Shown here: positions 3,863 through 26,888 of the stretch, piece after piece
How the letters are laid out: each line of letters opens with the position of its first letter
How positions within the stretch are numbered: the first letter of the stretch is position 1
Assembly: GCF_001455205.1 (NCBI RefSeq)
Contig: NZ_CP013341.1
Location: forward strand, 2,369,303 to 2,401,302
Source: Nitrosomonas ureae
GTDB lineage: Bacteria > Pseudomonadota > Gammaproteobacteria > Burkholderiales > Nitrosomonadaceae
Length of the DNA stretch: 32,000 bases
Direction of reading: 5' to 3'
The notes under the pieces: generated by a model
The model's database searches: none
What the model was told of the DNA's origin: nothing
What the model saw: only the letters and a program-made list of their open reading frames with translations
Made by a program: the position numbers and the translations under genes

Positions 3863-5260
3863 CTAAAGAGTAGCTACCGACAAATACTCTGGAATACTGG
3901 CCGTCCAATTAAGTTTTTGTTGTATTGCATTTACCAGGGCAGTGGAGTTGCTGATCTCGCCATGCACGACATAAATCTTTTCGGACATTTTCTGGAAGTG
4001 TCCAAGCCAAGCGAGTAAATCAGCTTGATCGGCATGCGCTGAGAGACCGCCGATGGTATGAATGGTTGCCCTGACTCGAACTTCCTGACCCAAAATATTA
4101 ACTTGTCTGGCGCCATCCACGAGTCGCCTGCCCAAGGTTCGCGCAGCTTGAAAGCCAGTAATCAGAATGCTGCATTCAGGTCGTCCCAGATTGTATTTGA
4201 GGTGGTGTTTGATACGCCCGGCATCACACATGCCACTGGCTGAAATGATGATGATGCCGCGTTTTATGTCATTGAGTTGCATCGATTCCTCAGTGTCTTG
4301 CACAAAATGTATCCGGGGCTTTCGTGCGCTATCGTTTATCCATTGCAATGCATTGGCGGATTCCTGATCGAGCAGGGAAAGGTGCTGCAGCGTGATTTCA
4401 GTGGCTGCCCGAGCCATCGGTGAATCCACATAAATTTCCATGTCTCCAAGCCTGCCTTGCCGATGGAGATCAACCAACAGAAACAGAATGTCCTGAGTGC
4501 GTCCCACCGTGAATGCCGGAATGATGACGTTGCCACCTTTTTGAATCAGGGTATCGTTAATTGCATGCACCAGTTCATCCAGTGTATCGCGCATATTGCG
4601 ATGCAGCCGGTTGCCGTAGGTGGATTCAATCAACAGAACATCGGTTTGCCGAATAATTGCAGGATCCCGCACGACCGGATGTCCGGGTTGTCCGAGATCG
4701 CCGGAAAATACAATTTTCTTCTGTCCTGCGGATTGTTTTATCCAAACCTCGATGATGGAAGAGCCAAGAATATGTCCGGCATCGCGAAAGCAACATCGTA
4801 TTGTGGGATGAGGGGTAATTTCGATATCGTAATCAATACGATGTAATTGCTTCAGCAGAGCTTCCGCTTGCGTCACTGTATAAAGCGGGGCGAGATCTTG
4901 TGGAAATCGACTACGGCGACGGGATTTATTGCGCCATTCGATTTCTTTCTCCTGAATATAGGCGCTATCCTTGAGCATGACATGGAGTAAATCGGCGGTC
5001 GCCGTAGTGCAGTATACCGGCCCTCGGAAGCCCCAGGCGCTTAACCGCGGCAATAATCCGGAATGATCGATATGAGCGTGAGTCAATAATACGAAGTCAA
5101 TTGTTTTAGGATCAAATTTAAAAGCGGTACGGTTCTTTCTGTCCGCTTCCCGTCCGCCTTGAAACATACCGCAATCGACCAGAAATTTTACTGTTCCTGT
5201 TTCAATGAGGTAACTGGAGCCGGTGACTTCTCCGGCTGCGCCTAAGAAAGTCAGTTGCAT
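3863..5260 (-). CDS. MBL-fold metallo-hydrolase of the beta-CASP RNA-metabolising type
   Basis: 465 aa. HAHIDHSG (HxHxDH) motif, DAGHILGS, and the beta-CASP/RMMBL-type C-terminus with GLSAHAD. Confidence 0.8.
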   Translation of the reverse strand: MQLTFLGAAGEVTGSSYLIETGTVKFLVDCGMFQGGREADRKNRTAFKFDPKTIDFVLLTHAHIDHSGLLPRLSAWGFRGPVYCTTATADLLHVMLKDSAYIQEKEIEWRNKSRRRSRFPQDLAPLYTVTQAEALLKQLHRIDYDIEITPHPTIRCCFRDAGHILGSSIIEVWIKQSAGQKKIVFSGDLGQPGHPVVRDPAIIRQTDVLLIESTYGNRLHRNMRDTLDELVHAINDTLIQKGGNVIIPAFTVGRTQDILFLLVDLHRQGRLGDMEIYVDSPMARAATEITLQHLSLLDQESANALQWINDSARKPRIHFVQDTEESMQLNDIKRGIIIISASGMCDAGRIKHHLKYNLGRPECSILITGFQAARTLGRRLVDGARQVNILGQEVRVRATIHTIGGLSAHADQADLLAWLGHFQKMSEKIYVVHGEISNSTALVNAIQQKLNWTASIPEYLSVATL

Positions 5261-8124: not shown

Positions 8125-8464
8125 ATAGCGTCGTCACAAGACATTCACCTAGAGAGCGATACCTCGGATTTGAATAGCGGTAAGGAAGGATGCTGAAGTT
8201 TTAGCATAGTGCGTGCCAATAGCGACGGCTTCTGAAAATAGGTGGTTGTATTCATACCGGGGGTACAAAAGCCCCAATCAATATGTAGCGGAAACAGAAA
8301 TATTGAAAAAAGTCGCTTAAGTGGGTTGTCCGCTTTTACTTGATGAGGTCATACTCATTTGATTTTTAGTTTATTTTTTATTTTTATAAGATGGATTCAA
8401 AAGGCTTGCTCTTGCTATATCCCATCCGGTAGCCTTCGTTTGTCACGTGTAGTCACAAATATAT

Positions 8465-8665
8465 TTATTCATTTGATGTTTCTTCTATAAACTCAATCTT
8501 ATAATTGTCTTGATTATCATCATTCACAACACCGTTAGCTTTAGCCTTATTCCAAGCATCTGTAATGTAGTCTTCTTTATTTAACATATCATCTGCCAGG
8601 CTCAGGGAGAATTGAGCTTTTACTTCTCCTGAAGATTTTTCAATAATCTGTACTTTTTTTAACAT
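8465..8665 (-). CDS. P-type small protein, paralog P3 (unassigned family)
   Basis: Tracked ORF 8465-8764. The internal ATG at 8665 (MLKKVQIIEKSSGE..) has a GGAAG RBS and aligns with paralogs P1 and P2: KxxIxxK .. KEDYxxxAWxxAxxxG[LV]V .. NYxxxF. Confidence 0.55.
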   Translation of the reverse strand: MLKKVQIIEKSSGEVKAQFSLSLADDMLNKEDYITDAWNKAKANGVVNDDNQDNYKIEFIEETSNE

Positions 8666-8717
8666 ACAAACACTTCCATAAATTGATATTCTGCTTACAA
8701 ATATCTCGAAATTAACA

Positions 8718-8869
8718 TCATAAAATCCCGTCGGGTACATTTTTTCCAGGTGGGGCACCTTCACGTATTAGATTTTCATAGGAAAGATCTTCCGGTGATA
8801 TTCTGTTAGGTGATGGTGGTTCCACACAAGGTGAATGATCATTTGGATTAATGTCAGTATTTTTTTCAT
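8718..8869 (-). CDS. A-type small acidic/proline-rich protein, paralog A3; the long frame needs a 1-nt shift in an A7 tract
   Basis: ATG 8869 lies 7 nt after GGAG and is followed by A7 (T-run 8860-8866 on the + strand). The zero frame gives 33 aa (stop 8768). With one extra A it reads MKKNTDINPNDHSPCVEPPSPNRISPEDLSYENLIREGAPPGKNVPDGIL (stop 8718). That product shares SPxxISxxDL[ST]xE..VPD with the 70-aa protein at 9611-9823. Confidence 0.3.
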
Positions 8870-8880
8870 AATCTTACTCC

Positions 8881-9174
8881 TTAATGTTCCGTGCCTGATG
8901 GAGGGCGGGGTGTTGAATTATTTCTTCCAGAGTCTTTGTTTATCTTTTCTGGTGGACTACTGGCATTTGAATCTTTCTTATCTATAGAATCTGTCTCGCA
9001 TGGATCTCCGCCATCTATTCTTTCATGATAATGACCGGATTCTAGTTTTTCGCATTTCTGCTTCTCATATAAACGATCTTTACTGTCATAGGATTGTGCT
9101 AAAACATGAGTTCCTGGAAACATAAATAAAGCAAAAACCAAGAAAATGATGGTTAAATCATTGACATAACGCAT
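8881..9174 (-). CDS. S-type small exported protein, paralog S3
   Basis: ATG 9174 (MRYVNDLTIIFLVFALFMFPGTHVLAQ|S) follows AGGAG. It has a signal-peptide-like N-terminus and a hydrophilic low-complexity mature part. It aligns with S1 (10282-10593). Confidence 0.6.
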   Translation of the reverse strand: MRYVNDLTIIFLVFALFMFPGTHVLAQSYDSKDRLYEKQKCEKLESGHYHERIDGGDPCETDSIDKKDSNASSPPEKINKDSGRNNSTPRPPSGTEH

Positions 9175-9292
9175 TTGAGCTCTCCTGAAAAGCAAAGATT
9201 GTCACTATGCAAAATTTCAATGGGAAGGTCTGTGCGAAAACCAACATTAGAAAATATAAACCGCTGAAGGGGGAAGTTAGAACAATGAATAA

Positions 9293-9499
9293 TTACCTGT
9301 CATATTGAGAGGTATTATCATCAACAAATTTCATAGAATAATTTGATCGATTGGATTCATCTACTAACCCGTTATCAACTGCATGATCCCAAGCTTCTGC
9401 GAAAAAATCTTCCTTTAAATCATTTTCAACCCGTTCAATTGGATATTCCGCAATTATTTGCTGTGATAATTTATCAGTAATTCTGATTTTATTAATTAT
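9293..9499 (-). pseudogene. P-type small protein, paralog P2; the initiator position is ATA (non-canonical start or inactivated copy)
   Basis: Not in the ORF track. The reverse strand reads (I)INKIRITDKLSQQIIAEYPIERVENDLKEDFFAEAWDHAVDNGLVDESNRSNYSMKFVDDNTSQYDR*. A GGAG lies 7 nt upstream of ATA 9499-9497, which aligns with the ATG of P1 and P3. The open frame has no ATG/GTG/TTG (upstream stop at 9518-9520). Confidence 0.45.
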
Positions 9500-9610
9500 A
9501 AAAAATCTCCACGCAGTTTAAGAAATGAATATTGGAAAATTTTTATAGCTGTGTATGGGCGTAACGTAACTCATCTAATAAAAAATAGCGGACGGAATTT
9601 CCGGTAGCAA

Positions 9611-9823
9611 TTATTCCACGGGATTATTTTTAATGTGACTCTCATCATCCGGAACAATCTTTTTTTGGAGCGCTTCTTCTGGTGTTAAATCTATCGTTGA
9701 GATGCCTGCTGGCGATTCCTCGTCGTCAGGATGCTCCTGTAATTCATCATAATCATTGTCGGAAAATTGCAAATTTTCGAATTTATACTTCTTTTTTAAT
9801 ATTGGAGGAGTGGACTGTGTCAT
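9611..9823 (-). CDS. A-type small acidic protein, paralog A2
   Basis: 70 aa, strongly acidic, no signal peptide (..DEESPAGISTIDLTPEEALQKKIVPDD..). AAGGA lies upstream. It sits immediately upstream of P2, in the same relative position as A3 to P3. Confidence 0.5.
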   Translation of the reverse strand: MTQSTPPILKKKYKFENLQFSDNDYDELQEHPDDEESPAGISTIDLTPEEALQKKIVPDDESHIKNNPVE

Positions 9824-9938
9824 AAATAACTATCCTTACATTAATAAATAGAATGGTAGAGAATCTGCGCTGTTTCCAATCTATAGGCAAACGATCGAGG
9901 GATTGGAAAAAAAACCAGGTGGAGCCGGTTTGTCATAG

Positions 9939-10187
9939 TTATTTTGATTCTGTAGGATCGATCTTTTCAGGGTCAATGTCCTCTTGAATTTCTACTCCGG
10001 CATCGTTCTTATCGTAATTTTGTTGATTAGTAACGCTATCTTTTTTAATGGGATGAATATCCTGCGCGGGTTTTGGTTTTAGCGAATCATCAACATTTTT
10101 CTGAATCTGAGATTCTTCCACGGCAAAGGCAGATACGCTAATAAATAAAAGCGCACGTATTAAACCATTAGCTAATAAATTAATCAT
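9939..10187 (-). CDS. Small exported hydrophilic protein (S2)
   Basis: 82 aa. Signal-peptide-like MINLLANGLIRALLFISVSAFA|VEE followed by a K/D/E/Q-rich low-complexity region; AAGGAA RBS. Confidence 0.5.
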   Translation of the reverse strand: MINLLANGLIRALLFISVSAFAVEESQIQKNVDDSLKPKPAQDIHPIKKDSVTNQQNYDKNDAGVEIQEDIDPEKIDPTESK

Positions 10188-10281
10188 GAGATGATTCCTT
10201 TGTTCTAAATAAATTCAAAATTCACTTGAAAAATATCTGCCTCTGCAATTTCGTTCTAATTACTAATCAAATGATAAGTAA

Positions 10282-10593
10282 TTAATAACCTGCTTCGGAG
10301 GGTACATCAGGATTGTGTAAGGGTGATTCAGAATTTTTTGCCGGCGGATGCACAATTCCATCCCCCCGTGGTACATTCTTGTCAAAATTTCCCTTGTTTT
10401 CTTCGGTTCTACCTCTTAAATCCGCATCTTCCTTTAGTTGATTAGTTCTGCCAGATTCAAATTTCCGAACATTTTGAGGTTCGTAAGTTTCTTTGCGATC
10501 AGTATCTGACTCTGACAATACATCAGTGCTTGGAAAAATGAATACCCCAAAAATTAGAACGAACCAAAATAGCTTGTTGTCATTATTCATCAT
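10282..10593 (-). CDS. S-type small exported protein, paralog S1
   Basis: ATG 10593 lies 5 nt after AAGGAG. MMNNDNKLFWFVLIFGVFIFPSTDVLSES.. aligns with S3 through the signal peptide and about 45 mature residues (..YEPQNVRKFESG vs ..YEKQKCEKLESG). Confidence 0.6.
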   Translation of the reverse strand: MMNNDNKLFWFVLIFGVFIFPSTDVLSESDTDRKETYEPQNVRKFESGRTNQLKEDADLRGRTEENKGNFDKNVPRGDGIVHPPAKNSESPLHNPDVPSEAGY

Positions 10594-10706
10594 CAATTCT
10601 CCTTATGAAAAATGAAATACCTTACTCGTGTTTATAATTAATTAAATCTGTCTTGGTGCGACCATAAACAGTAGAACCCTTCAAAATGAAGAGCCCTTTA
10701 AGAAGT

Positions 10707-10784
10707 CACTTTTTATGAGGTGGGGCTTTGCTTTTCTCTGAATCTTTTTTCTTGTCATTAGAACCAGCAGTAAATTTATTCATT
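10707..10784 (-). CDS. 25-aa lysine-rich peptide (MNKFTAGSNDKKKDSEKSKAPPHKK)
   Basis: ATG 10784 lies 6 nt after GGAG. It is too short for independent support. Confidence 0.25.
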
Positions 10785-11147
10785 TTTAACTCCTTGCATG
10801 ATGAAATGAAAGTTAAGAATAAATTTTATTAATGACACTTTCTGTGCGGCCTGTCACATAAAGAACTAAATTTCATGTCTTAGTCCGAGGATGAGTAATC
10901 TCAGATTCAGTAAGCGGCGGTGGAGTATCGAGGGGATCTTGTTTTGGTGGAACTTTCAGAGGCTGTTCAGGGAGCACGAATGGTGGAGGCGCAGGCGGTA
11001 TCGAAGATTCTGGATTAATTTGAGCAAGAAAATGATTCGAAATATACAAGTGCCTAGCCAGATATCCTCTAATTAGAAACTTTATTCTCGTTGAATGTTG
11101 TCGAAGGGGGATCGGCGCGTCTTCTCACACAATAAGAATAAGGCAAT

Positions 11148-11168
11148 AAAAAACCCGCCGAAGCGGGC
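11148..11168 (-). terminator. Rho-independent terminator downstream of the PRC-barrel gene
   Basis: The minus-strand RNA reads GCCCGC-UUCG-GCGGG followed by U6: a GC stem, a UUCG tetraloop and a U-tract, 46 nt after the stop at 11214. Confidence 0.8.
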
Positions 11169-11213
11169 TATATATTCCTTGTCATGCTCTGATTTAGAAG
11201 CGAGATCGTTTTA

Positions 11214-11621
11214 TTATCTCTTATCAGCGCCATAATAAGAATTTACAGTATGTTGCCACGAAGAATCAGCCATATTAGGCCAATGATCTTTATCGAATCC
11301 GGGAGCAGATTCTAGCTTTTCTTTATTAGCGTCCAGTGTAAAGCGTTTATTGGCGGTGTCCAATTTTAATGCACTCCATGGTACGGCAAAAAGTTTATCT
11401 CCCATTCCTAGAAAACCGCCGAATGAAAGTACTGCGTAACTTACTTCCCCCGTATTCATATCCAGCATGATCTCTTTGATATCACCCAAGTCTTCGTCCT
11501 GCAAATTATAAACATCATTGCCGAGCAGGGTGTTAGCTCCCATCAATTGGGGCCCTGGCCCACCAGAATTTGTATTTTTATACATACCTAATTCATCTTT
11601 ATCTATATAGCTCATATTCAT
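11214..11621 (-). CDS. PRC-barrel domain protein
   Basis: 135 aa. GEVSYAVLSFGGFLGMGDKLFAVPWSAL is a PRC-barrel signature. The second ATG at 11615 has better spacing to GGAG. Confidence 0.75.
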   Translation of the reverse strand: MNMSYIDKDELGMYKNTNSGGPGPQLMGANTLLGNDVYNLQDEDLGDIKEIMLDMNTGEVSYAVLSFGGFLGMGDKLFAVPWSALKLDTANKRFTLDANKEKLESAPGFDKDHWPNMADSSWQHTVNSYYGADKR

Positions 11622-11757
11622 CTCCGTTTAGTAATTGAATGAAACGGAATTATGAAGATAAAGAAAAAAACTATCTGTACGGCATCCCACAATATGTATA
11701 TGAAAGTGATAAAATCAGCCCCAGGGGGTAGAGGGGAAAATTTAATTATTCTCTGGA

Positions 11758-11943
11758 CTATCTAAAAACAAACTTCATTTCATAATCTGTTTCGTTTGTG
11801 GTTTCGACTAACCCTTCACTAACTGCATTGGCCCACGCTTTTGCGAAATAATCTTGTTTTGTAGAGCTATCTCTTAAATTAATTAAATACTGCGCTATGC
11901 AGTTGTGTGTTTCTTTTTCTAAAATTTGTATTTTTCTTTGCAT
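11758..11943 (-). CDS. P-type small protein, paralog P1
   Basis: ATG 11943 (MQRKIQILEKETHNCIAQYLINLRDSSTKQDYFAKAWANAVSEGLVETTNETDYEMKFVFR). It aligns with P2 and P3. Confidence 0.55.
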   Translation of the reverse strand: MQRKIQILEKETHNCIAQYLINLRDSSTKQDYFAKAWANAVSEGLVETTNETDYEMKFVFR

Positions 11944-12281
11944 AAGCAGTCTCTTCAAATTTTATTTATATAGTAGATTTGATGAATTTTCATAATGTAA
12001 CTCCTTCTCAACCAAAAAAAGATTCCACGATCTATTAGCAGCAATTTATACTCAGCTCGCAATCGAACAATGATAATGCACGAAGAGGAAATTTTGCATG
12101 AACGGCCAAGAAAGACTGAGTAAATTATGTTTCTGAATTGGGATGAGTAACAACTGCCTTCCAATAGTATTGGAATACTTTATTCAGAATAAGAAAATCT
12201 GTCTGCCAAGGCTTGAGTTTGTTTTCCTATTCTGATTTGCGCTAGATCGGTCAGCAATGGATTTCGGATGAGATTCTGGAT

Positions 12282-12794
12282 TTACGTTTTTTTAGAAGAA
12301 GCCTTATTTCTTGAATCTTTATGATCTTCTTTAAAGTGAATGACTTCTTTTGCCATTTCAGATCTATCAATTTCAGATTTTGTAAGCTTAGGAAACATGT
12401 TTTTTTCCTCTTCTTTAACATGGTGCTCAATATACTCACGCAATACAGTTACCTTTGCATCATAATGACTATCTTCAGCACTCATCGATTGAAGCTGGGA
12501 AATAAGTTCTTTTGCGCCAGCATGCTCCACATCTGCCTCGTCCATTAAATCATCGTCATCGATTGTTTCTCGTGCAGTGGGATAAACAATTGATTCTTCA
12601 GCTAAGGCATGTAAAGTCAATTCTTCGCAAATCTGCTTAACAATTTTTTCTTTTTTACTAGTGTTATTACTTTTATCTTTTAATTCTTCGAATTCATCAA
12701 ATAAATCCTTAACCTTAGCATGATCAGCTTTTAATAGCTTAATAATATCATCAGCTTCTGATTTACTTGAGTTTGTGTTTTTGTGTTGAGACAT
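12282..12794 (-). CDS. Hemerythrin-like (HHE cation-binding) domain protein
   Basis: ATG 12794 (MSQHK..). Spaced His/Glu helices: LLKADHAKVKDLFDEFE, LHALAEESIVYP, EHAGAKELISQL, EHHVKEEEKNMFP. Confidence 0.75.
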   Translation of the reverse strand: MSQHKNTNSSKSEADDIIKLLKADHAKVKDLFDEFEELKDKSNNTSKKEKIVKQICEELTLHALAEESIVYPTARETIDDDDLMDEADVEHAGAKELISQLQSMSAEDSHYDAKVTVLREYIEHHVKEEEKNMFPKLTKSEIDRSEMAKEVIHFKEDHKDSRNKASSKKT

Positions 12795-13057
12795 GATTTT
12801 ATTCCAATTGAAAGAAGGAATAATCATGATCTCTCTAAAGGAATATAAAGTCGGTGTGTTACCGCACTTTTAGAATAGTTCAAATTGCTCGGATTATAGA
12901 TAACTCAAGCAGAAGGATTGGAAGGATACGCCAGCGGGCGCTTTCAGGTTGAAGAATCGACGAGCAAGCCAAGAGACCCCAAAGTGTTGACGCCGGTCGA
13001 AAATTGACCAGGTAATCCACGTATTCTGCTTATTTCTTAAGCAGAGGTTAAGAAGAG

Positions 13058-13331
13058 GTGATTACCATGGTTATGTATGCAAAGATACGACGGATGTTTT
13101 ATCGTGAACATCTAACGATAAGCGAGATTCAACGCCGCACAAGTTTGTCACGGAGTACGATCAAGAAATGGTTAAGGGCATCCGGCGACAGTGCGGTCAA
13201 GTACTATAGGCTGAAGATTCCTGGCAAATTAACGCCATTTGAGCCCAAACTGTTGTTGGCATTGGAGGCTGACGTACATCGCCCCAAGAAAGACCGACGT
13301 ACTGCACTCATGTTGTTTGACGACATACAGT
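13058..13331 (+). pseudogene. IS21-family IstA transposase, N-terminal ~90-aa fragment
   Basis: YAKIRRMFYREHLTISEIQRRTSLSRSTIKKWL..KKDRRTALMLFDDIQ is the IstA HTH N-terminus. Similarity stops near 13331, where the sequence becomes the antisense of another IS gene. Confidence 0.7.
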
Positions 13332-13480
13332 GCCTCAGTACGCAGGTTCCGGACTTCATCCGAGGTTGCTTCACGAACAATATCTCCAGCCAATCGCTTC
13401 TTCCCAGCTTCCAGAAATCCCTTCGACCAGCGGTAATAGATATTCGTATTGATACCTTCTGGAGTTGGAGTTGCCCCCAT
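13332..13480 (-). pseudogene. IS3-like OrfA (HTH transposase) internal fragment, inverted
   Basis: GINTNIYYRWSKGFLEAGKKRLAGDIVREATSDEVRNLRTEAL resembles the IS3-family OrfA core. It is cut on both sides (about 13331 and 13480). Confidence 0.5.
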
Positions 13481-13519
13481 TGAACGGACACATTATGTTC
13501 TGTTTAAAGGAGAAGAAAT

Positions 13520-13840
13520 ATGACGCAAAACTACAAACCTGCTTACCCACCTGAGTTACGCCAACAGATGGTGGAATTGGTAGCATTAGGCAAATGCCCC
13601 AAGCAATTATCCAAGGAATTTGGCTGCCACTACACGTCGATACAAACCTGGTGCCGGGCAGCAGGTGTACCAATTAGATCAAACCAGGCAATTGCTTTGG
13701 CTGTAACATCGAGTGTTGCTTCCTTGAGTGCCAACGAACGGCAGGAGCTGCTGGAATTGCGTAAGAAGCTCAAGCGTGTGGAGATAGAGCGCGACATATT
13801 GGCAATGGCTACGGCCTGGTTTGCAAACAACAAAGATTGA
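13520..13840 (+). CDS. IS3-family transposase OrfA
   Basis: 106 aa. HTH (PKQLSKEFGCHYTSIQTWCR) plus the leucine-zipper-like tail ELRKKLKRVEIERDILAMATAWFA. It overlaps orfB. Confidence 0.8.
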   Translation: MTQNYKPAYPPELRQQMVELVALGKCPKQLSKEFGCHYTSIQTWCRAAGVPIRSNQAIALAVTSSVASLSANERQELLELRKKLKRVEIERDILAMATAWFANNKD

Positions 13841-14424
13841 CTGGGAAGGTGTACCAACTCATCAAGGCAAACCGGGCCCAATTTCCGGCTCGTGTTCTAT
13901 GCGAGACACTCGGTGTATCGCACAGCGGTTACTATGACTGGGCAAAACGCACACCCAGCCGACGGGCCATTACCAACTGTCGATTGATCGAGCAGATCAT
14001 GGCCATATACCGTACCAGCGATTGTACGTATGGCCGCCCCCGCATTACCGTTGAATTAGCCGATCGTGGAGTCAGGGTCAATCATAAGCGCGTAGGCAGA
14101 TTGATGCGTGAAGCTGGAATTAAAGGGGTGAGTCGCAGGCGAGGCTTTGTGATCACGACTCATCGGAATAAGCGTGACCGCCCTGCACCGGATTTAGTGC
14201 AACGCCATTTCAAGGCAACTAGCATCAACCAACTATGGGTTGCGGACATGACTTACATTCCTACCTGGGCAGGGTTCCTGTACCTGGCCGTGGTCATCGA
14301 TGTATTCAGCCGTAAGGTAGTGGGCTGGTCTTTCGGTGAAACCATGACAGCAAGCCTGGTGATCAGTGCGTTGAACATGGCGTTAATCACTCGTAAACCG
14401 GGCAAAGTGATTCACCATAGCGAT
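13837..14424 (+). pseudogene. IS3-family OrfB segment 1 (N-terminus to ..VIHHSD)
   Basis: ..YGRPRITVELADRGVRVNHKRVGRLMREAGI..QLWVADMTYIPT..LYLAVVIDVFSRKVVGW..HHSD. The frame is then broken by foreign DNA at 14425. Confidence 0.8.
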
Positions 14425-15100
14425 AGTAAGAATACTTGCACCAGATTTCAATAATGATTTGACTCAACCATTGAGTGAGCAATTATTGGAGCTCTGGTAC
14501 CGTAGGAGTTGCCAAGTTTCCTGACCCTCACTCAGATCGACCATCATATGTGTCATTCCTCGGATCTAAATGGGTATCGCGATATATCAACTGCATACAA
14601 AATTGCATTGAAATCGCTTGCACGACGATATTTGGAGTTACATGACGAAATTGCAGATTTGGATGTGATGATTTCCGTCATTGTTGATGAATTAGCCCCC
14701 GAACTGATTACAGGCAAAGCCATTGGATATGAATCTGCGGCACAGCTACTCATTACCATAGGAGACAATCCGGAACGCTTAAAGTCTGAAGCTAGCTTTG
14801 CGGCGTTGTGTGGTGTCAATCCAATTCCTGCCTCATCAGGCAAGGTCAATAGGCACAGGTTAAATCGTGGGGGTGATAGAGCGGCTAACAGCGCGCTGCA
14901 TATTATTGCTATAGGACGATTGCGGATAGACGCCAGAACTAAAGAGTATGTTGAAAAGCGTTTAACTCAGGGTCACACTAAACTTGAAGCACTTCGTTGC
15001 CTTAAACGTTATATCGCAAGAGAGGTATATTACACTTTGAGAAAGAGAAATAATTTAATCAATAGCGCACAAATTGCAGCTTGACATTTAGAAGGGCATC
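14425..15100 (+). mobile_element. IS110-family remnant inserted in IS3 orfB
   Basis: This 676-bp insert sits exactly between the codons HHSD and RGSQY of orfB. It carries only the C-terminal half of an IS110-type transposase. Confidence 0.65.
14590..15084 (+). pseudogene. IS110-family transposase, C-terminal domain only
   Basis: Within ORF 14509-15084: LARRYLELHDEIADLD..GYESAAQLLITIGDNPERLKSEASFAALCGVNPIPASSGKVNRHRLNRGGDRAANSALH..RCLKRYIAREVY. The N-terminal DEDD catalytic domain is absent. Confidence 0.75.
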
Positions 15101-15295
15101 CGCGGCAGCCAATACTGTGCACATGATTACCAGAATGTATTGCAACAATTTGGCATGATTGCTTCCATGAGTCGTAAGGGTGATTGCTATGATAATGCAC
15201 CGATGGAAAGCTTCTGGGGGATACTTAAAACCGAGCTGGTGCATCATAGAAGATTCAAAACACGGCAACAAGCCATCCAGGAGATTACCGAATAT
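15101..15295 (+). pseudogene. IS3-family OrfB segment 2
   Basis: RGSQYCAHDYQNVLQQFGMIASMSRKGDCYDNAPMESFWGILKTELVHH..QEITEY. It ends at the IS4 insertion. Confidence 0.8.
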
Positions 15296-15315
15296 CAGTA
15301 GTGTCCGGCAATTTA
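15287..15315. repeat. 9-bp target-site duplication (ACCGAATAT, 15287-15295) plus the left 20-bp IR of the IS4-family element (15296-15315)
   Basis: cagtagtgtccggcaattta is the exact reverse complement of 16597-16616. accgaatat recurs at 16617-16625. Confidence 0.9.
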
Positions 15316-16616
15316 GTTGAATAGATTCAGTTGGTTGTTGTTATGGTGAGTGATCATTTGCATCTCAGTATTTTTAAGTAATTGATCTAGGTTAGTTTTC
15401 TCGAAAAGAGTTAGGCTCAGGATTTGTAGGATTGTGTAAAGTGAAGTCTCGGTATTGAGTCGCTTTTTTACGATGGCAACCAAGACATAAACCGAGATGG
15501 CAATCCATATCTGTGTCTTGACTGCGTTTTCAGTGGTTCCGTAGAATTGCTTGATACGAAGATGTTGTTTGATCCACTTGAAGAATAGTTCGATCTGCCA
15601 GCGACAACGATAAAGCTGAGCGATGGTCAGTGCAGGTAAATCGAAGTTGTTGGTTAGAAATACCAGATGCTTGTCGTGTTCGGCATCATAGAACTTAATA
15701 CGTCGTAGGTGCTGCGGGTAATCCTTGCTGGCCTTCGTAGCGGTCAATGCAATGGTCTGATCGCATCGCAGTCCCGTGGATTTGTCCACTGAGTGAGAGT
15801 AGACACGGCGAAAAAGGAGACTGGATTTAGCGCGCGTTACAAAAAATGCTTGTGCTTGATGCATAGTGAACCAGCGAGCAAAGTCGGTAAAGCCCCGATC
15901 CATGATGTAAAAGCTGCCAGCTTCGGGGATCAGGAAATCGAGCACATTGACTTCGTGCATCTTGCCGTCGCTGATATGGATGAACGTTGGAATGTTGCCG
16001 CGTAGATCAAGCAGTGTATGCATCTTGACGGCAGCTTTGGTCTGACGAAAGCGCGCCCATGGAAAGACGCTCAAACACAGATCGATGGTCGTGGTATCGA
16101 GTGCATAGACTGTCTGTTCCAACTCCACCGCTAAGCTATCGCTGGAGTAAAGCTTTCTGGCGATCTGGATCAAGCTCATCGCGAAATCCATGTAGATGCG
16201 ACAATCGCGCTGCTCGTTGGCATCGGCCAACGTACTCTTGGCGATGTTGCCTCGTATGCCCAAGTGATAAAGCTTAGCTTGGTGAGCGCGCAGACAGGTT
16301 TCGATGTTGCGCAGACTCTCGCGGTAAGTCAGCTGCGCGAAAGCCATGCAAAGAAATTGATCGAGATGCGAAAGAGTCTTGGTGGGATATTTGGAAGGGT
16401 AACGCTGTACACAGCGGCGGAATGTGTGAAGGGGCAAGTAATCCATGAGTTGTGCGAATACCAATTTGCCTGAATGCATGATAAGAAGCCACGTAGGGAA
16501 ATCTCCAGTTTCGCAAAAAATTCACTTTCAAATCGGTGACACCCCCAAACATACCATTTCATTCTACAGATCAATCTGTTATACAATCATCTTGGGTAAA
16601 TTGCCGGACACTACTG
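15296..16616 (-). mobile_element. Intact IS4-family insertion sequence (1321 bp)
   Basis: Perfect 20-bp terminal IRs and a 9-bp TSD. Removing the element and one TSD copy restores the IS3 orfB frame (..QEITEYIEIFYNRQ..). Confidence 0.9.
15313..16479 (-). CDS. IS4-family DDE transposase (N-terminal DUF4372-like region)
   Basis: 388 aa. MHSGKLVFAQLMDYLPLHTFRRCV.., ALDTTTIDL, FYIMDRGFTDF and YRCRWQIELFFKWIKQHL are typical of the family. Confidence 0.9.
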   Translation of the reverse strand: MHSGKLVFAQLMDYLPLHTFRRCVQRYPSKYPTKTLSHLDQFLCMAFAQLTYRESLRNIETCLRAHQAKLYHLGIRGNIAKSTLADANEQRDCRIYMDFAMSLIQIARKLYSSDSLAVELEQTVYALDTTTIDLCLSVFPWARFRQTKAAVKMHTLLDLRGNIPTFIHISDGKMHEVNVLDFLIPEAGSFYIMDRGFTDFARWFTMHQAQAFFVTRAKSSLLFRRVYSHSVDKSTGLRCDQTIALTATKASKDYPQHLRRIKFYDAEHDKHLVFLTNNFDLPALTIAQLYRCRWQIELFFKWIKQHLRIKQFYGTTENAVKTQIWIAISVYVLVAIVKKRLNTETSLYTILQILSLTLFEKTNLDQLLKNTEMQMITHHNNNQLNLFN

Positions 16617-16625
16617 ACCGAATAT
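16597..16625. repeat. Right 20-bp IR of the IS4-family element (16597-16616) plus the second TSD copy (16617-16625)
   Basis: taaattgccggacactactg followed by accgaatat. Confidence 0.9.
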
Positions 16626-16727
16626 ATAGAAATATTCTATAACCGGCAGAGAAAACAGAAAAAGCTGGATTATTTTTCACCAGCACAATTTACGCAGCAA
16701 TACTATGCAAATTTGCTTGTTGCTTAA
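16617..16727 (+). pseudogene. IS3-family OrfB segment 3 (C-terminus)
   Basis: (TEY)IEIFYNRQRKQKKLDYFSPAQFTQQYYANLLVA* is a typical IS3 OrfB tail. Confidence 0.8.
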
Positions 16728-16758
16728 ACCGATGGACTCCATTTTTGACAGCACATAC

Positions 16759-16771
16759 ATGGACGCCCACT
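16759..16771. repeat. Subterminal IR of the IS110-family element (3' side)
   Basis: atggacgcccact is the reverse complement of 18159-18171. Confidence 0.7.
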
Positions 16772-17031
16772 TTCTGTCAAGCTTTCAGTCAATGATTTTG
16801 AGCAGGTAAAGATTGCTGCCATACATCCGGACTTTGTATGAGGCGCATTGCCCCTGCCCCTGATGGAATTTGCTGAGTAGCGCCTTATCACCTCAGCGTG
16901 CTCTATGCACTGTGTGCTGTTTAGGTTTAGCTACTCACGGTCTGACCAGTTTCGCCATCATTGTCATGATTGCCCGTGCAATCGGTTGAAATTTTTCTCC
17001 TTAAATCTGCTGCAGTGCTATCAATAAATTT

Positions 17032-18087
17032 CTATGCAACACCATAATCATGCTCGGCAGCAACTGATGTCGTAGCGCGATTATGGTGGAATGTTGTGCC
17101 TTGGGCGAGCAACGCCCAGATAATACGAGCATTTTTATTCGCTAGTGCAACAGCAGCGATATTCTTGTTGCGTCGAGCTATCAGTTTACGCAACCAGCTT
17201 TCTGGTTCTTCCTTATTTTCAGCAAAACGGATGACTGCTCTTGCTCCGTGAATCAGCAAAGTGCGCAGATAAGTGTCGCCACGTTTACTGATGCCGAGTA
17301 ATATCTGCTTGCCACCACTGGAGCACTGTTTTGGCACCAATCCAAACCATGCCGAAAGTTGCTTGCCGTTCTTGAACTCTGTGGCATTTCCAACTGTTGC
17401 AACAATGGCGCTCGCCGTAATCGGGCCAATACCGGGAATAGCTTCCAATCTTTGACTGGCTTCGTTCTCCTTGTGCCACAGCTTGATCTGCAATTCCAAC
17501 TCTTCTATTTGTCGACTTAGTTGTTTGAGATGATCATTCAACTGTTTCAGTAAATGACGCATTGATCCTGGTAAATCGTTTCCAGCATCTTCCAGAATAT
17601 CCGGCACCCGATTGATAATCGAACGGATCCCTTGTGGGATAACAATACCAAATTCAGAAAGCAGGCCGCGTATCTGATTTGCCTGTGCGGTTCTGGCTTT
17701 GACGAAACCTTGCCTGGCACGATGCACTGACAAAATGGCTTGTTGCTCAATATTCTTGATCGATACAAAACGCATGTTGGGTCGGCTTACCGCTTCGCAG
17801 ATCGCTTCCGCATCTGCCATATCATGCTTGTTGGTCTTGACGTAGGGTTTGACAAATTGGGGTGACATGAGCTTGACGGTGTGCCCAAATTCGCACAGCT
17901 TTCTCGCCCAATGGTGTGAACTACCGCAGGCTTCCATCCCAATCAGGCAAGGCTCCAGATTGGCAAAAAACTTTGACATCTCGCTACGGCGCAACTGCTT
18001 GCGCAGCAACGCCTTACCATACATATCCACGCCATGAATCTGAAATACTTCTTTTGCCAAATCAATGCCTATCGTTGTAATCTTCAT
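17032..18087 (-). CDS. IS110-family (DEDD) transposase/recombinase
   Basis: 351 aa. MKITTIGIDLAKEVFQIHGVD..CLIGMEACGSSHHWARKL..NKHDMADAEAICEA plus the C-terminal IPGIGPITASAIVATVGN..FGLVPKQCSSGGK..GISKRGDTYLR. GGAG lies 8 nt upstream. Confidence 0.9.
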   Translation of the reverse strand: MKITTIGIDLAKEVFQIHGVDMYGKALLRKQLRRSEMSKFFANLEPCLIGMEACGSSHHWARKLCEFGHTVKLMSPQFVKPYVKTNKHDMADAEAICEAVSRPNMRFVSIKNIEQQAILSVHRARQGFVKARTAQANQIRGLLSEFGIVIPQGIRSIINRVPDILEDAGNDLPGSMRHLLKQLNDHLKQLSRQIEELELQIKLWHKENEASQRLEAIPGIGPITASAIVATVGNATEFKNGKQLSAWFGLVPKQCSSGGKQILLGISKRGDTYLRTLLIHGARAVIRFAENKEEPESWLRKLIARRNKNIAAVALANKNARIIWALLAQGTTFHHNRATTSVAAEHDYGVA

Positions 18088-20880: not shown

Positions 20881-21035
20881 TCGCAAGCGCAAGGATACTT
20901 CAGCGCTATACCTTACTTTGCTTTGCAAACCTTAAACCTGGCAGGATTCGGGCAGGGCTTGGGCATCATCATGGGCGCAATTACATTTCGCATGACCTTC
21001 GTACTGCTGCCTAAACTGGGAGTGATACCGAAATG
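20881..21035 (+). pseudogene. pVI-like (DUF2523) C-terminal remnant (copy B)
   Basis: Matches copy C from 28398 (..QGYFSAIPYFALQTLNLAGFGQGLGIIMGAITFRMTFVLLPKLGVIPK). It is fused to the pIII remnant by the deletion. Confidence 0.75.
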
Positions 21036-21996
21036 GTCATCATACTGACGGCAACGCCTGGCTGCGGAAAAACTAATCACGCCGTATGGAGCCACATTAA
21101 ACCGGCGGTGGAAAATGAACGAATAGTTTACGTTTGCGGCATTCCGGATTTAAAGCTGATGCACATCAAATTATTAATTGCCAAGCTTAACACCTGGGCG
21201 GAACGCACACCCATAGACCCCATTGATCCCGAAGGTAAGCAAAAGCTCAACAATATAACCGAAGGCAGTCTCATTGTAGTGGATGAAGCCGCTTATCCGT
21301 GGCCGGCCATCGATCTGAAAGATCCTCCAGAGTACATCAAGTATCTTTCCCAGCATAGAAAGCACGGGCTTGATTTCCTGGTAATCACGCAATCGCCCAA
21401 GTTCGTGCATCCGTTCGTACTGGAAAACGCAGATAGGCATATTCACCTGAGCCAGGAATGGTCAGGTAATAAGCAATATGAATGGTCGGAATACTGCGAA
21501 CCCGAAACTGAAAACCAACCGGGCCAATGCAGTCAAGAAGCCGTACAAACTGGAAAAGAAAGCGTTCGAATTGTATTACTCAGCCAGCCTGCATGTAGAA
21601 AAACCGAAACGCGCGATTCCCAAAATGGTTTATGCGGCAATTTTCCTATTATTCGCAGCTCCGGCAATGGCCATGATCACTTATGGGCGCATTACTGACC
21701 GGTTAGCCGATCCGAATTGCAGAAAATAAAGAAACTGAAAAATTAGCCGAAGTAATCGAAACACAAAATGATGCAGTCGTGCCGGTATCTGCAACCCTCA
21801 CCAATCAACCCATCAGAGAATCACTTTCCATGTTATCTGAAAATGTTGACTGGTCACAGTTGCCGCTTGTGTTTCAAGCAAAGCTAACTGCGTTTGCTAC
21901 GGTCATAAAGCGCAACGCTTGAATATTGTTCCGGATACCTGCAATGCTGCCATTAATTATGGTTGGATTGTGACTAACAAGATTTAGAGGAAAACA
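21033..21996 (+). pseudogene. Zot/pI-like assembly ATPase, frameshifted (copy B)
   Basis: The first ~165 aa are nearly identical to copy C (GTPGCGKTNHAVW..LIVVDEAAYPW). A 2-nt gap relative to C near 21497 shifts the frame; ORF 21478-21729 carries the continuation. The 3' part is degenerate but ends ..NCVCYGHKAQRLNIVPDTCNAAINYGWIVTNKI*. Confidence 0.8.
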
Positions 21997-24368: not shown

Positions 24369-24683
24369 ATGAGAAACGTTAAAAATAGCTATTTCCGCGC
24401 AATCCTAGAAGTAACCAACAATGGAACACTTCCCGAATATTCCGACTTGTGGCGCTCGTACCATCCAACAGCATTAATGCTGGATAGCGATTATTGTTTA
24501 TTTACTGAACCTGGACGGTTTGAGCCGACGACTTCGGAGGAGGCGATAACCGGCCAGGACTCCCAAAAAATACTTTACGTTCCAGTTACACGTAAAGTTA
24601 GTCCACGAACATGGACAAAAGCGACAAATCGGACAGGTAAAGTTAGTTCAAAAATCCGGACAATCTCCGAAAACCTGCACTAA
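24369..24683 (+). CDS. Hypothetical 104-aa phage protein (first gene of the rightward operon)
   Basis: ORF with an ATG after GCAGGGG. No motif recognised. The position corresponds to small regulatory or excision-type genes in other inoviruses (by position only). Confidence 0.45.
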   Translation: MRNVKNSYFRAILEVTNNGTLPEYSDLWRSYHPTALMLDSDYCLFTEPGRFEPTTSEEAITGQDSQKILYVPVTRKVSPRTWTKATNRTGKVSSKIRTISENLH

Positions 24684-24697
24684 GGAATCCTCCTAAA

Positions 24698-25709
24698 ATG
24701 ATGAATCTGATTCCTGTGTTTGTCGACTATCTGACCATCCGTCAAGTGCATGACGGCGGCAAGCTGCCAGTTATTAACGGGGGCAGAGTGCTGAGAATAG
24801 ATTCCGATGGTGAGATTGAATACGCCGTGGACACTCGGCAAGGTTTGGAAGGTAGTTTTGATAGTCGGGTGGAAGTGCGTTGCGATGGTCATCAGGTCGA
24901 ATTCTCCGGCAATATATCCCGCTATGGGCGACAAGATAATTTATTTGGTTTCACTTTTGCCGACAGCATCGAGCGGATCAATGATCTGCTCAAAAGTTTA
25001 GGATTGCCACCTTTTACCGCTGGCAAATTGTATAAGTTCGCTGATTCGGGCTGGACGTGGACAGGTGCCAGAGTCAGCCGGATAGACATAACCTGTAATT
25101 ATGTCACCGGCTCCATGATCGACTCCGAAGCATTACTCCGCAATATGGCAGGTCACCACATTGGCCGACAAAAGGGCTCATTATCCGTCAATGGCGCTAC
25201 CGTTGAATATGGACGAGGTTCCAAATACGTTTACGGCAAACTCTACTGCAAAACCACTGAACTAAAAAAACACCGCTCTAAAAAAATCAGGCCAGCATGT
25301 TACCGATGAAGTCATCGACTTCTGCCAACACTTAGGCGTAATACGAGAAGAGTTTACTCTGAAATCACGCTTTCTTCTACAAAATGGCTTGGCCTATCTA
25401 GGGGCTATCACTGATGCATTATTAATCGAGGTTTATATGAACAGAACCCAATTACAACGACTGGAAAACGTCAAATACGAAAATTTCAATGATCTGCCGC
25501 CATGGTTGCGAGCAACTTACGTGAGCTGGAAATATGGTTATCCGATTGATCTTAAACGTTCTGCTTTTTATAACCACAGAAAAGCTTTACTTGCTTACGG
25601 CATTGATATCTCCATCCCCAACAACGTGCAAACCATGCCAATCAAAGTAAAAACAATCGAACTGGCTGCGTTCACCGCGCCTGATTGGTACATCAAGAAA
25701 TACGCATAA
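24698..25709 (+). pseudogene. Filamentous-phage gene II/X-type (Phage_CRI-like) rolling-circle replication initiator, split by a +1 frame change in an A7 tract
   Basis: ORF 24698-25309 (VFVDYLTIRQVHDGGKLPVINGGRVLRIDSDGEIEY..SRIDITCNY..) continues in frame 0 from 25266 to 25709 (..SGQHVTDEVIDFCQHLGVIREEFTLKSRF..). The frames switch within 25264-25286, which holds two A7 runs. The joined length of about 335 aa fits the family. Confidence 0.75.
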
Positions 25710-25784
25710 AGTTTTTTTATTACGCTCTGAACTCAATAACCGCCGGTTCAGGCAAAGCGTTAACAGGTGGTGTAAGGGGTTGTC

Positions 25785-26081
25785 ATGTTAGAAAAAGTCA
25801 AAGTAACCGGTATCACCTTCTTTAAAGATACCATCGACGGCAAGCAAATCGATTCAGGTGCGGCATTTGTTGAAGAGCATCTGAATTTCCAAACGGGAAG
25901 GGCGAAAGGAACAGCTACGCAAAAATATCCTCTGGGCGATGCCGGTAAAGCGCAAGCGTTAATGCATCTGGAATTTCCGCTGATGTGTGAAGTTGAATTC
26001 GTGCGCGTCACCAATGGCAACGTATCCAAGAACATCATCAACTCAATTAAGCCATTGCAACAAGCCAAACCTGCCGCGTGA
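25785..26081 (+). CDS. Putative ssDNA-binding protein (gV-like), assigned by position only
   Basis: 98 aa, directly downstream of rep, AAGGGG RBS. No sequence motif recognised. Confidence 0.35.
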   Translation: MLEKVKVTGITFFKDTIDGKQIDSGAAFVEEHLNFQTGRAKGTATQKYPLGDAGKAQALMHLEFPLMCEVEFVRVTNGNVSKNIINSIKPLQQAKPAA

Positions 26082-26157
26082 TTCCAGCCTATACGCGCAA
26101 CGAAAGGGCGCGTATGGGGTGCAATCCCGCACCGTTTAACTTTAGGAGTAATTCATT

Positions 26158-26520
26158 ATGTTGAAAGCTTTAAAAACCAGCTGCAACAAAACAAAAGATG
26201 TCGTGATGACTATCGGTTCCAAAGTAGCCCAAAGAATCAAGCGTGAATGTCACACTTTCATGCATAAATTGAGCAAACTATCAAAAGCTTGCAATCAAGC
26301 TTCTCAAAAGGCGATTGAAGGCGAATATCTCGGCAAAGGTGGCCTGATCGTCGCTGGAAGTGCCTCTCTCACCTTCGCCGGTAATGCACTCGCAGCAGTA
26401 CCGGAAGGCGTTACCACCGCCATCACATCAGCCGCCACCGATGTGGCAACCGTGGGCGCTGCCGTGATACTGGTTCATATCGGTATTAAAGTCTGGCGTT
26501 GGATTAGAAGCGCATTCTAA
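26158..26520 (+). CDS. Major coat protein precursor (gVIII-like) with an unusually long N-terminal extension
   Basis: The C-terminal ~62 aa form a signal-like LIVAGSASLTFAGNALA|AVPEGVTTAITSAATDVATVGAAVILVHIGIKVWRWIRSAF. The mature ~42 aa have an acidic N-terminus, a hydrophobic core and a basic tail. AGGAG RBS at the first ATG. Confidence 0.65.
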   Translation: MLKALKTSCNKTKDVVMTIGSKVAQRIKRECHTFMHKLSKLSKACNQASQKAIEGEYLGKGGLIVAGSASLTFAGNALAAVPEGVTTAITSAATDVATVGAAVILVHIGIKVWRWIRSAF

Positions 26521-26530
26521 TCTGACTCAC

Positions 26531-26552
26531 AAGGGGGCGCTTCGCCCCCTTT
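26531..26552 (+). terminator. GC-rich hairpin after the coat gene (probable partial terminator)
   Basis: aaGGGGGCgcttcGCCCCCttt, 11 nt after the stop. There are only 3 T residues, so it is probably leaky. Confidence 0.5.
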
Positions 26553-26573
26553 AACACCTCCGGACTTCAAATT

Positions 26574-26888
26574 ATGGGCTACAAATACCAAACGGTTTGC
26601 CATGACACGCTCTATGACTTCCATGTCGCATTTGCTCAAAGTTGCCACGCATCAGGATCAGGTCAATTGGGTGCCATCTATCTTTCCTGTACTGCTGATT
26701 CAGGTGGTTATGTAGTCATGCAATCCTATAATGCTTCAAACGGCACTCCAGGTACAGCATGGAATTACACGCCGCAAGCCATACCATGCGAAGTCTCTCT
26801 CACCAACCAAACCGGCTTCATGTGGGAACTGGCATTGATCCTGATTGCTGGCTTCTCCATTCGGGCAATCATCAAGGCATTTCAATAA
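26574..26888 (+). CDS. Phage membrane/minor virion protein candidate (104 aa, C-terminal TM)
   Basis: Cys-rich N-terminal part. C-terminal MWELALILIAGFSIRAIIKAFQ is a TM with a basic tail. The stop overlaps the next ATG (TAATG). Confidence 0.45.
   Translation: MGYKYQTVCHDTLYDFHVAFAQSCHASGSGQLGAIYLSCTADSGGYVVMQSYNASNGTPGTAWNYTPQAIPCEVSLTNQTGFMWELALILIAGFSIRAIIKAFQ

Follow-up and report, generated by a model that had tools for sequence, protein, structure and literature searches.

We analysed a 32,000-nucleotide stretch of Nitrosomonas ureae DNA (NCBI RefSeq assembly GCF_001455205.1, contig NZ_CP013341.1, positions 2,369,303 to 2,401,302 of the forward strand; hereafter the window, numbered from its first letter) and found that it holds four diverged copies of one small protein, P1 to P4. 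Together with their relatives in other genomes they make up what appears, to judge from the sequences, to be an undescribed and uncurated family of acidic proteins of about 60 residues. Homology, the breadth of the family, purifying selection, the fold prediction, the genomic contexts and a start-codon defect in P2 are directly supported by the results below. As to function, we favour the tentative reading, which we put a little short of an even chance, that the P proteins are very small, acidic, stand-alone proteins whose genes travel as stress or accessory cargo and which act as stoichiometric binders.

Homology and conservation of the P proteins

The four copies are located as follows; scores refer to the family hidden Markov model (HMM), and aa stands for amino acids.

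11758..11943, minus strand: P1, 61 aa with an ATG start, intact; 80 bits; AlphaFold2 predicted local distance difference test (pLDDT) score 88
9293..9499, minus strand: P2, 68 codons counted from an ATA that aligns with the family Met1; 91 bits
8465..8665, minus strand: P3, 66 aa, intact, its ATG lying within a mechanically called open reading frame (ORF) at 8465-8764; 86 bits
29595..29810, plus strand: P4, a diverged fourth copy of 71 aa with CW in place of AW; 22-24 bits in a full-length HMM alignment

A first-pass annotation of this DNA had proposed that P1, P2 and P3 belong to one family, and the shuffled controls bear this out. Pairwise Smith-Waterman scores among the three were 110-132, against shuffle means of 23-27 (standard deviation about 5) and no shuffle above 59, which corresponds to z = 18-23. 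The similarity is far beyond chance. In the MAFFT alignment P1 is 41% identical to P2 and 34% to P3, and 14 columns are invariant, including AW..A...G.V; the core AW..A...G[LV]V is found in all three copies. The alignment is not free of gaps, as had been claimed, since P3 carries a single extra residue in the loop preceding the helix. P4 was recovered by scanning all window ORFs with the family HMM (E = 3e-6 over the ORFs of the window and the compared loci). Its sequence, MKAAILIRSKLNDQFVACYPY...FNFCWEIALNNKLVKAG...YFSFVD, has C in place of the family A36. P1, P3 and P4 are all intact, each with a plausible ribosome-binding site, and the frame of P1 is open upstream as far as a TTG at 11958.

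The expectation that automated annotation would miss the family relationship held in part. In public gene calls (GCA_900105875.1, FNLN01000041.1) P1 was called with 61 aa and P3 with 66 aa, and P2 was not called; protein P0001 of GCA_900105875.1 is identical to P1. A proteomics study (PMC5960693) assigns FNLN01000000 to N. ureae; the locus tags in its tables could not be matched to genes of the window. As the first-pass annotation had pointed out, the ATG of P3 does sit inside the longer listed ORF at 8465-8764.

The absence of P2 from the gene calls coincides with a defect at its start. The stop-to-stop frame of P2 (9293-9517) has no in-frame ATG, GTG or TTG, and ATA stands exactly where the family has Met1, with GGAG located 6-7 nt ahead of it. 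The relevant element, read from the sequence and from a six-locus alignment, is:

9500..9512, minus strand: GTG at 9512-9510 and T-run at 9505-9500

The GTG sits four codons before the ATA. In the window and in the related loci L004 (the public N. ureae contig) and L008 the run has six Ts, which puts the GTG out of frame (GTG-GAG-ATT-TTT-TAT-AAT-TAA). Three metagenome relatives (L005-L007) have five Ts and an in-frame GTG-E-I-F extension, called as MEIF-IINK... (P0002). The five-T allele also carries G44K, Gly being the majority residue at position 44 (68%). By standard criteria P2 is defective in this strain; it may be a pseudogene, or else ATA or ATT, with GGAG ahead of it, may allow weak translation. 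The locus is an example of start-codon loss combined with homopolymer-length polymorphism, which automated annotation handles inconsistently.

To determine the breadth of the family, a three-sequence profile was searched with HMMER against 1.84 billion representatives. This check, suggested in the first-pass annotation, returned 87 proteins (clusters) at E <= 1e-3 and 20 at E <= 1e-10. Matches were 42-109 aa long, barring three long repeat proteins judged spurious. Narrower searches recovered less: a word-indexed search gave only six close clusters, one N. supralitoralis and four Logan run assemblies, and a motif scan of genome contigs with a narrow pattern recovered N. supralitoralis as the sole genome. 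A second profile, built from the alphaproteobacterial and 'EAWRCAV' branch and seeded by a weak tblastn match in Mesorhizobium plasmids, added 54 further clusters from Mesorhizobium, a Methylococcaceae metagenome-assembled genome and many metagenomes. Their source names read "hypothetical protein", bar one evidently misassigned Joint Genome Institute name (P0045). The Mesorhizobium protein WP_063170821.1 scores 43.5 bits against the family HMM and has F in place of W37. P1 to P3 show all the marks expected of a member: alignment to the family HMM over its whole length, the residues W37, A36, A40, I7 and Y54, and the hairpin-helix-strand layout.

The family consensus reads M..KVQIIEK.SG.IIAEYPI.L(variable loop)EDYFDEAWENAVDEGLVDE.NR.NY.IEIVE. 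Column statistics over 84 members showed that W37 is invariant and that conservation reaches at least 90% at I7, A36, A40, V46 and Y54. With Y32, F33 and V41 added, these positions form a helix stripe (i, i+1, i+4, i+5, i+8, i+9) and inward-facing strand positions, that is, a hydrophobic core. The only conserved polar positions in the same columns are E9, S/T12, D31, D43 and R/K51, located in the hairpin turn, at either end of the main helix (N-cap and C-terminus) and in the short helix that comes second. Nothing in the 84-member columns looks like a catalytic site, and neither Cys nor His is conserved. Members are acidic, with a median isoelectric point (pI) of 4.55 and a median net charge of -5; in most of them the helix is acidic on its solvent-exposed side, as is the loop after it. 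No signal peptide or membrane segment was found in any member. The ratio of nonsynonymous to synonymous substitution rates (dN/dS) between P3 and P0006 of N. supralitoralis is 0.20, which indicates purifying selection on P3, and the family is kept from Beta- to Alphaproteobacteria.

Predicted fold and search for known relatives

The first-pass annotation had guessed a strand-strand-helix-strand pattern. An AlphaFold2 model computed from an eight-sequence alignment (mean pLDDT 88.4) supports it, with strands at residues 2-9 and 15-22, helices at 29-42 and 48-53 and a further strand at 54-59. In the predicted fold a beta-hairpin leads into an amphipathic helix, and a second, short helix precedes the third strand.

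We compared sequences and model with curated collections. P1 to P3 gave nothing better than E = 0.06 against Pfam and NCBIfam. For the family as a whole NCBIfam yielded no match, nor did Pfam; with the threshold relaxed to E <= 10 for the 84 aligned members, no Pfam family was matched by more than three of them. PHROGs and PADLOC returned isolated matches only, with E > 1e-3, and the best match of the profile to PDB sequences, at E = 0.09, was not significant. A Foldseek comparison, which the first-pass annotation had also proposed, found no significant structural match: the best PDB entry was a HORMA2 fragment (E = 0.36), followed by the colicin E3 immunity protein 3eip (E = 0.47). Against BFVD the best E value was 0.013, and the matches there are weak and are all unnamed small phage proteins. 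The P family therefore stands outside every curated family and known fold class tested.

Three of the nearest candidates deserve comment. HORMA proteins (Pseudomonas aeruginosa HORMA2, 6p8o; Mad2/Rev7) supplied the top PDB matches, on the hairpin-plus-helix sub-structure of P. The E values are 0.36-2, however, and the target-normalised template modelling (TM) scores 0.12-0.26, and P has less than half the size of HORMA and lacks the safety-belt region; we regard this as a chance sub-structure match and rejected the relationship. The immunity protein 3eip, the second-ranked PDB match to the P model, is like P a small acidic protein with a beta-sheet and one helix, and small acidic inhibitors of this kind also occur as diverged paralogs in variable regions. 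The match is not significant (TM 0.39, 10% identity), and P differs in having no adjacent toxin gene. The N-terminal domains of HicB-like/UPF0150 antitoxins and of IF3 have layouts that resemble P, with short strands followed by a helix of the 'EEA..A' type. Kinship with either was rejected, as no Pfam match to them appeared in the 84 members at E <= 10 and they fall outside the top 50 Foldseek matches in PDB. No HicA partner gene was found near P genes.

A further comparison concerns phage inhibitors. The proteins p56 and Ugi are phage DNA-mimic inhibitors, and p56 of phi29, a small acidic inhibitor, has a similar strands-plus-helix layout, which is a lead and not a test. The P family differs from such inhibitors in that it was not found in the phage genome collections searched: tblastn with two diverse members against 50,697 phage genomes (INPHARED) returned no relative, and two motif scans of IMG/VR gave no confirmed match. 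A phage origin was rejected on these grounds. The absence from both sources suggests that P is cargo of bacterial flexible regions and not a phage gene proper.

Copy number, neighbouring genes and alternative functions

In other genomes P1 has a relative in P0007 (61% identity), P2 in P0010 (49%) and P3 in P0006 (71%); among the window copies identities are 34-41%. The window copies are closer to proteins of other genomes than to each other, so the duplications are ancient, and the copies appear to be old paralogs and not a maintained recent amplification. Copy number in relatives had been suggested as a check, and within the Nitrosomonas-type branch more than one copy is indeed found repeatedly: at least four in N. 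supralitoralis (P0006, P0014, P0096 and one that is truncated) and two in each of L019 and L022. Elsewhere the pattern did not hold, as the Methylococcaceae, high-GC and Mesorhizobium loci examined carry a single copy each. Decayed copies are frequent. The one in L001 (12455-12679) is truncated and lacks the N-terminal hairpin, P0101 in L017 (about 465-726) has a poly-A frameshift, and the copy in L023 (6001-6183) contains an in-frame stop. With ancient paralogs, start loss in P2, frequent decay and single copies outside the Nitrosomonas-type branch, the earlier claim of selection for multiplicity is unsupported. Multiplicity is a lineage-specific habit of a fast-turnover accessory gene, and selection for copy number is not demonstrated.

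Such turnover raises the question of whether the P ORFs are nothing but decaying remnants, cargo that an old island has left behind as pseudogenes and that no longer has a function in this strain. The missing canonical start of P2, with its upstream GTG frameshifted by the six-T run, would fit, as would the damaged copies in L001, L017 and L023, the exclusively nonsynonymous differences between close relatives and the graveyard of insertion sequences (IS) that borders the islet around P1 to P3. Intact P1, P3 and P4 with plausible ribosome-binding sites, the dN/dS of 0.20 over the longer comparison of P3 with P0006, conservation from Beta- to Alphaproteobacteria and the confident predicted fold all argue against it. 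We consider this explanation highly improbable.

P1 to P3 lie in a compositionally distinct islet of stress-type genes, flanked in the window by a DUF3422 gene on one side and by IS fragments on the other (Pfam flank matches). The islet and the neighbouring features are:

about 8150..13000: low-GC islet with all genes on the minus strand; 35-39% GC against about 48% in the flanks (composition profile, ORFs)
12282..12827, minus strand: hemerythrin-like gene upstream of P1 (Pfam PF01814, E = 3e-18)
11214..11621, minus strand: PRC-barrel gene directly downstream of P1 (Pfam PF05239, E = 9e-17), with a strong terminator after it
10873..11049, minus strand: Pro-rich ORF with a TTG start only, absent from public annotation
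10282..10593, minus strand: Sec104a, small exported protein, three genes upstream of P2
8881..9174, minus strand: Sec104b, small exported protein with signal peptide and disordered tail, upstream of P3
19199..19522, minus strand: BON-domain (OsmY-like) gene, also of stress type, between the IS block and inovirus remnants, about 7 kb from the islet

The order of the islet genes is hemerythrin-like, P1, PRC-barrel, the Pro-rich ORF, a 25-aa Lys-rich ORF, Sec104a, a secreted 82-aa protein, an acidic 70-aa protein, P2, Sec104b and P3. Sec104a and Sec104b are paralogous (BLASTP E = 4e-11). The islet contains no tRNA genes or Rfam elements. No promoter shared by its genes was found by eye or by k-mer or dyad counting, and a sigma-70 scan showed no enrichment (15 sites against 18 expected). 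Judged by eye, the hairpins between genes are of the usual terminator-like kind, with T-runs, and are not attC-like; the idea of integron cassettes was rejected.

Several observations on the window stand beside these results. The hemerythrin-like protein has a sub-threshold NCBIfam match to the 'PA2171 family ribosome-binding persister protein' (71 bits, cutoff 190); PA2171 has been reported to bind ribosomes and FtsZ (PMC13041383). The Lys-rich ORF (10706-10783, minus strand, 25 codons, MNKFTAGSNDKKKDSEKSKAPPHKK) has a good AGGAG ribosome-binding site and a hairpin after it, and may be a small basic peptide gene. The IS graveyard (13058-18087) comprises an IS21-like N-terminal fragment, an HTH_21/rve fragment, two IS110-family transposases, one of them truncated, and a DUF4372/DDE_Tnp_1 transposase. 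Inovirus remnants comprise a truncated Zot-like gene at 21033-21698 and, at 24369-29524, a CRI-type replication protein, coat B, a 439-aa candidate adsorption protein and a full Zot-like gene. P4 starts 71 bases past the stop of the Zot-like gene of the inovirus prophage remnant, at the border of a stretch of 30% GC.

We compared the contexts of P genes in about 17 independent loci, here given L numbers. One group consists of stress-type clusters. At L019 a PRC-barrel gene is followed by two P copies and a gene for a secreted 91-aa protein (Sec91); L001 has DUF6496 and DUF1264, and L017 has DUF1328, hemerythrin near P0101 and Crp. In Mesorhizobium plasmids the stop of an entericidin-family lipoprotein gene overlaps the P start (ATGA; L025), with DUF892, KTSC, LigD and Ku nearby. 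On plasmid pMLb of Mesorhizobium japonicum (L026) an entericidin-family ORF at 4858-4998, absent from the plasmid gene table used, lies directly 5' of the P homolog, 2 nt apart, and PRC-barrel, CorA, a cold-shock protein and DNA ligase are further neighbours. Chromosomal Mesorhizobium P lies near an HWE-type kinase and BA14K. PRC-barrel adjacency is thus seen in two distant lineages, the Nitrosomonas type (the window and L019) and Mesorhizobium pMLb. In M. loti the pMLb PRC-barrel gene mlr9581 shows one of the strongest heat inductions (PMC3989490), and it may be the PRC-barrel neighbour of pMLb P; a P homolog could not be identified in the M. loti pMLb heat-shock array tables of that study.

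A perfect EcfG-type motif, GGAAC-N15-CGTT, stands 180 nt upstream of the entericidin-P pair of pMLb, where 4 motifs per 10 kb were counted against 0.34 expected. A gene or operon is assigned to the EcfG regulon by a GGAAC-N16/17-CGTT promoter ahead of it; this is an alphaproteobacterial criterion and is not applicable to the Nitrosomonas window.

Within the Nitrosomonas-type loci further recurrent elements were noticed. Beside P in L019 (1662-1937), L022 (3834-4142) and L043 (3879-4190) there are weakly related proteins that have a signal peptide and a disordered tail; they may represent a conserved two-gene linkage. A terminator-like hairpin, CCCGC-N4-GCGGG-T5-6-ATTGCC, stands behind almost every small gene of these loci (window 11149-11167, minus strand; L019, L020, L022, L043, L012, L017 and L021), with compensatory stem changes between copies. 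At 20-25 nt past this hairpin, and 45-65 nt upstream of P, Pro-rich and PRC-barrel genes, there is a box GTGAGTT-ATCGAAC(A/C)G (L012 7704; L017 72 and 400; L019 245, 793 and 1250; L020 3821; L022 4773). In four loci (L012, L017, L020 and L022) it is followed after about 17 nt by TTAGA. The box resembles a promoter of the extracytoplasmic function (ECF) sigma type and is intact nowhere in the window.

Small acidic Pro-rich ORFs with IPPE/PxP repeats also recur near P (L012 7473-7700, 7771-7956 and 5707-5835; L017 136-327; L001 10356-10478), and one P sub-lineage, 1 of the 84 members, ends in an LTNPPNQxPLPNP tail. The idea that P binds Pro-rich peptides was set aside as a note: Pro-rich neighbours occur in L012, L017, L001 and the window, but the Pro-rich tail in just the one member.

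The exported neighbours invite the explanation that P is a cytoplasmic antidote or escort for a co-encoded exported protein, either an entericidin-type lipoprotein or a 'Sec' protein of about 100 aa, the two genes forming a cassette in which P holds or neutralises its partner, and the P copies being members of cognate pairs. The close coupling in the Mesorhizobium plasmids, with overlapping stop and start in L025 and 2 nt between the genes in pMLb, fits. So does the recurrence of Sec-type neighbours, a weakly inter-related family, beside P genes that share just about 35-45% identity: Sec104b with P3, Sec104a upstream of P2, Sec102-TM101-P0008 in L022, Sec103-P0093 in L043 and P-Sec91 in L019. 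Exported and membrane proteins are common, however, and the adjacency is close to chance expectation; the similarity among the Sec proteins is weak and owes something to signal peptide and composition, and the mature proteins look disordered and hydrophilic, not toxin-like. P1, P4, P0096 and members of deeper branches have no such neighbour. In several related loci a strong terminator lies between the Sec and P genes. We consider the explanation rather unlikely. Its broader form, in which the P domain would be an unseen antidote or escort fold paired with small exported proteins (entericidin-type in Mesorhizobium, 'Sec' in Nitrosomonas) and spread by prophages and islands, is distinctly unlikely. 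If true, the pairing would be a new kind of two-gene envelope-stress or toxin-antidote cassette.

A second group of loci is made up of prophage and defence-type settings. L012 is a lambdoid prophage early region with the order umuC-like, two Pro-rich ORFs (Pro75 and Pro61), P0096 and SRAP. L022 has a umuD-like gene and, further downstream, Sec102, TM101, P0008 and SRAP; L020 has a umuD-like gene, TM104 and P, followed by phage recombination genes. L014 contains integrases, WYL and restriction-modification genes, and L033 NmeDI/T5orf172, WYL and DUF4411/M78. At L027 P adjoins an Xre-MbcA antitoxin, and at L030 it lies between ligA and an MtlR-like gene. SOS regulation was considered and rejected, as neither the window nor the umuD/umuC-linked L012, L020 and L022 contains a LexA box (CTGT-N8-ACAG).

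The P domain also occurs in a fusion. In P0098 (L014, 8001-8513) it is joined to a Cys-rich C-terminal domain (CGCFGC...CPHC). This domain has no Pfam, NCBIfam or PDB match; as a protein of its own, in a family annotated 'cytoplasmic protein', it is widespread on plasmids of Bacillus, Priestia and Mycobacterium. One Priestia plasmid has it beside a CPCC Cys-rich protein, in an array of small hypothetical genes that all lie on one strand.

These settings could be explained if the P proteins were orphan immunity or antitoxin-type proteins, their copies forming a poly-immunity set with each copy directed against a different incoming or resident toxin. Small, acidic, diverged paralogs clustered in variable regions (three plus one in the window, two in L019, two in L022, at least four in N. 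supralitoralis) would be expected, although this feature is not specific to immunity. The Cys-rich fusion of P0098, the Priestia array beside the CPCC protein, the small-gene run of L033 that includes P and ends with a Cys_rich_CWC protein, and the toxin-antitoxin or defence genes near P in L014, L027 and L033 point the same way. Pfam scans and annotation, however, revealed no adjacent toxin gene or toxin-domain remnant in the window and the 17 or so loci; there is no match to a Pfam immunity family or in PADLOC, the structural match to 3eip is insignificant, and the stress clusters of Mesorhizobium do not fit. This explanation we judge unlikely.

The prophage loci bear on one more alternative, namely that P is a prophage-borne accessory or anti-defence protein, for example a nucleic-acid mimic that inhibits a DNA-binding, repair or defence protein of the host. 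In three related loci P belongs to the cargo of a prophage early region, with umuC/umuD-like and SRAP genes alongside; P4 borders on an inovirus remnant; the P proteins are acidic; and their nearest, uniformly weak, Foldseek neighbours are the unnamed small phage proteins. Against this, tblastn with two diverse members in the phage genomes and both IMG/VR motif scans yielded no relative, PHROGs gave no match, no known DNA mimic was among the Foldseek matches, and many members reside in chromosomal or plasmid stress clusters unconnected with phage. Taken together, a role of this kind is quite improbable.

Candidate function and significance

Under the reading we favour, the P proteins would be stand-alone, probably cytoplasmic, non-enzymatic modules, and their genes accessory cargo of the flexible genome, residing in stress-type clusters or carried by prophages or islands. 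The conserved acidic surface may bind another macromolecule stoichiometrically, as an inhibitor, adaptor or antidote, and would probably act under stress or in stationary phase. Stoichiometric binding seems the most likely mode because the protein is too small for an active site and the conserved positions mostly belong to the core.

Several points weigh against this reading. A conserved core with a variable acidic surface fits a purely structural or chaperone-like protein as well. No neighbour is common to all of the about 17 loci, so that guilt by association is weak. The EcfG-type motif is present at one of three Mesorhizobium arrangements; neither the L025 pair nor the chromosomal copy in L036 has it upstream, and for Betaproteobacteria it is irrelevant. 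LexA boxes are likewise missing from the window and from the umuD/umuC-linked loci. Finally, close relatives differ by six nonsynonymous and no synonymous changes (four in P2, two in P3), a difference that is not significant and is compatible with relaxed constraint.

By analogy, the P family may functionally most resemble the small conserved proteins of stress clusters and mobile-element cargo, such as entericidin EcnA/B, PRC-barrel, BON/OsmY, DUF892 and CsbD/KGG/DUF3606-type proteins. They share the size class, P lies in clusters with hemerythrin, PRC-barrel, entericidin, Ku/LigD, DUF1264 and DUF1328 genes, and an EcfG-type motif precedes the pMLb entericidin-P pair. The P proteins differ in having no sequence or fold relation to those families, and about half of the P contexts are prophage or defence-island cargo.

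The P proteins constitute a new domain family and not a new system, and no new mechanism is demonstrated. With about 90 clusters at 50% identity and a confident predicted fold, this clean, uncurated family is a candidate for a new domain-of-unknown-function entry. It recurs in poorly understood stress-induced clusters of small genes, together with PRC-barrel, hemerythrin-like and entericidin genes, and in prophage cargo. A partner or phenotype for P would help to decode such clusters in nitrifiers and rhizobia.

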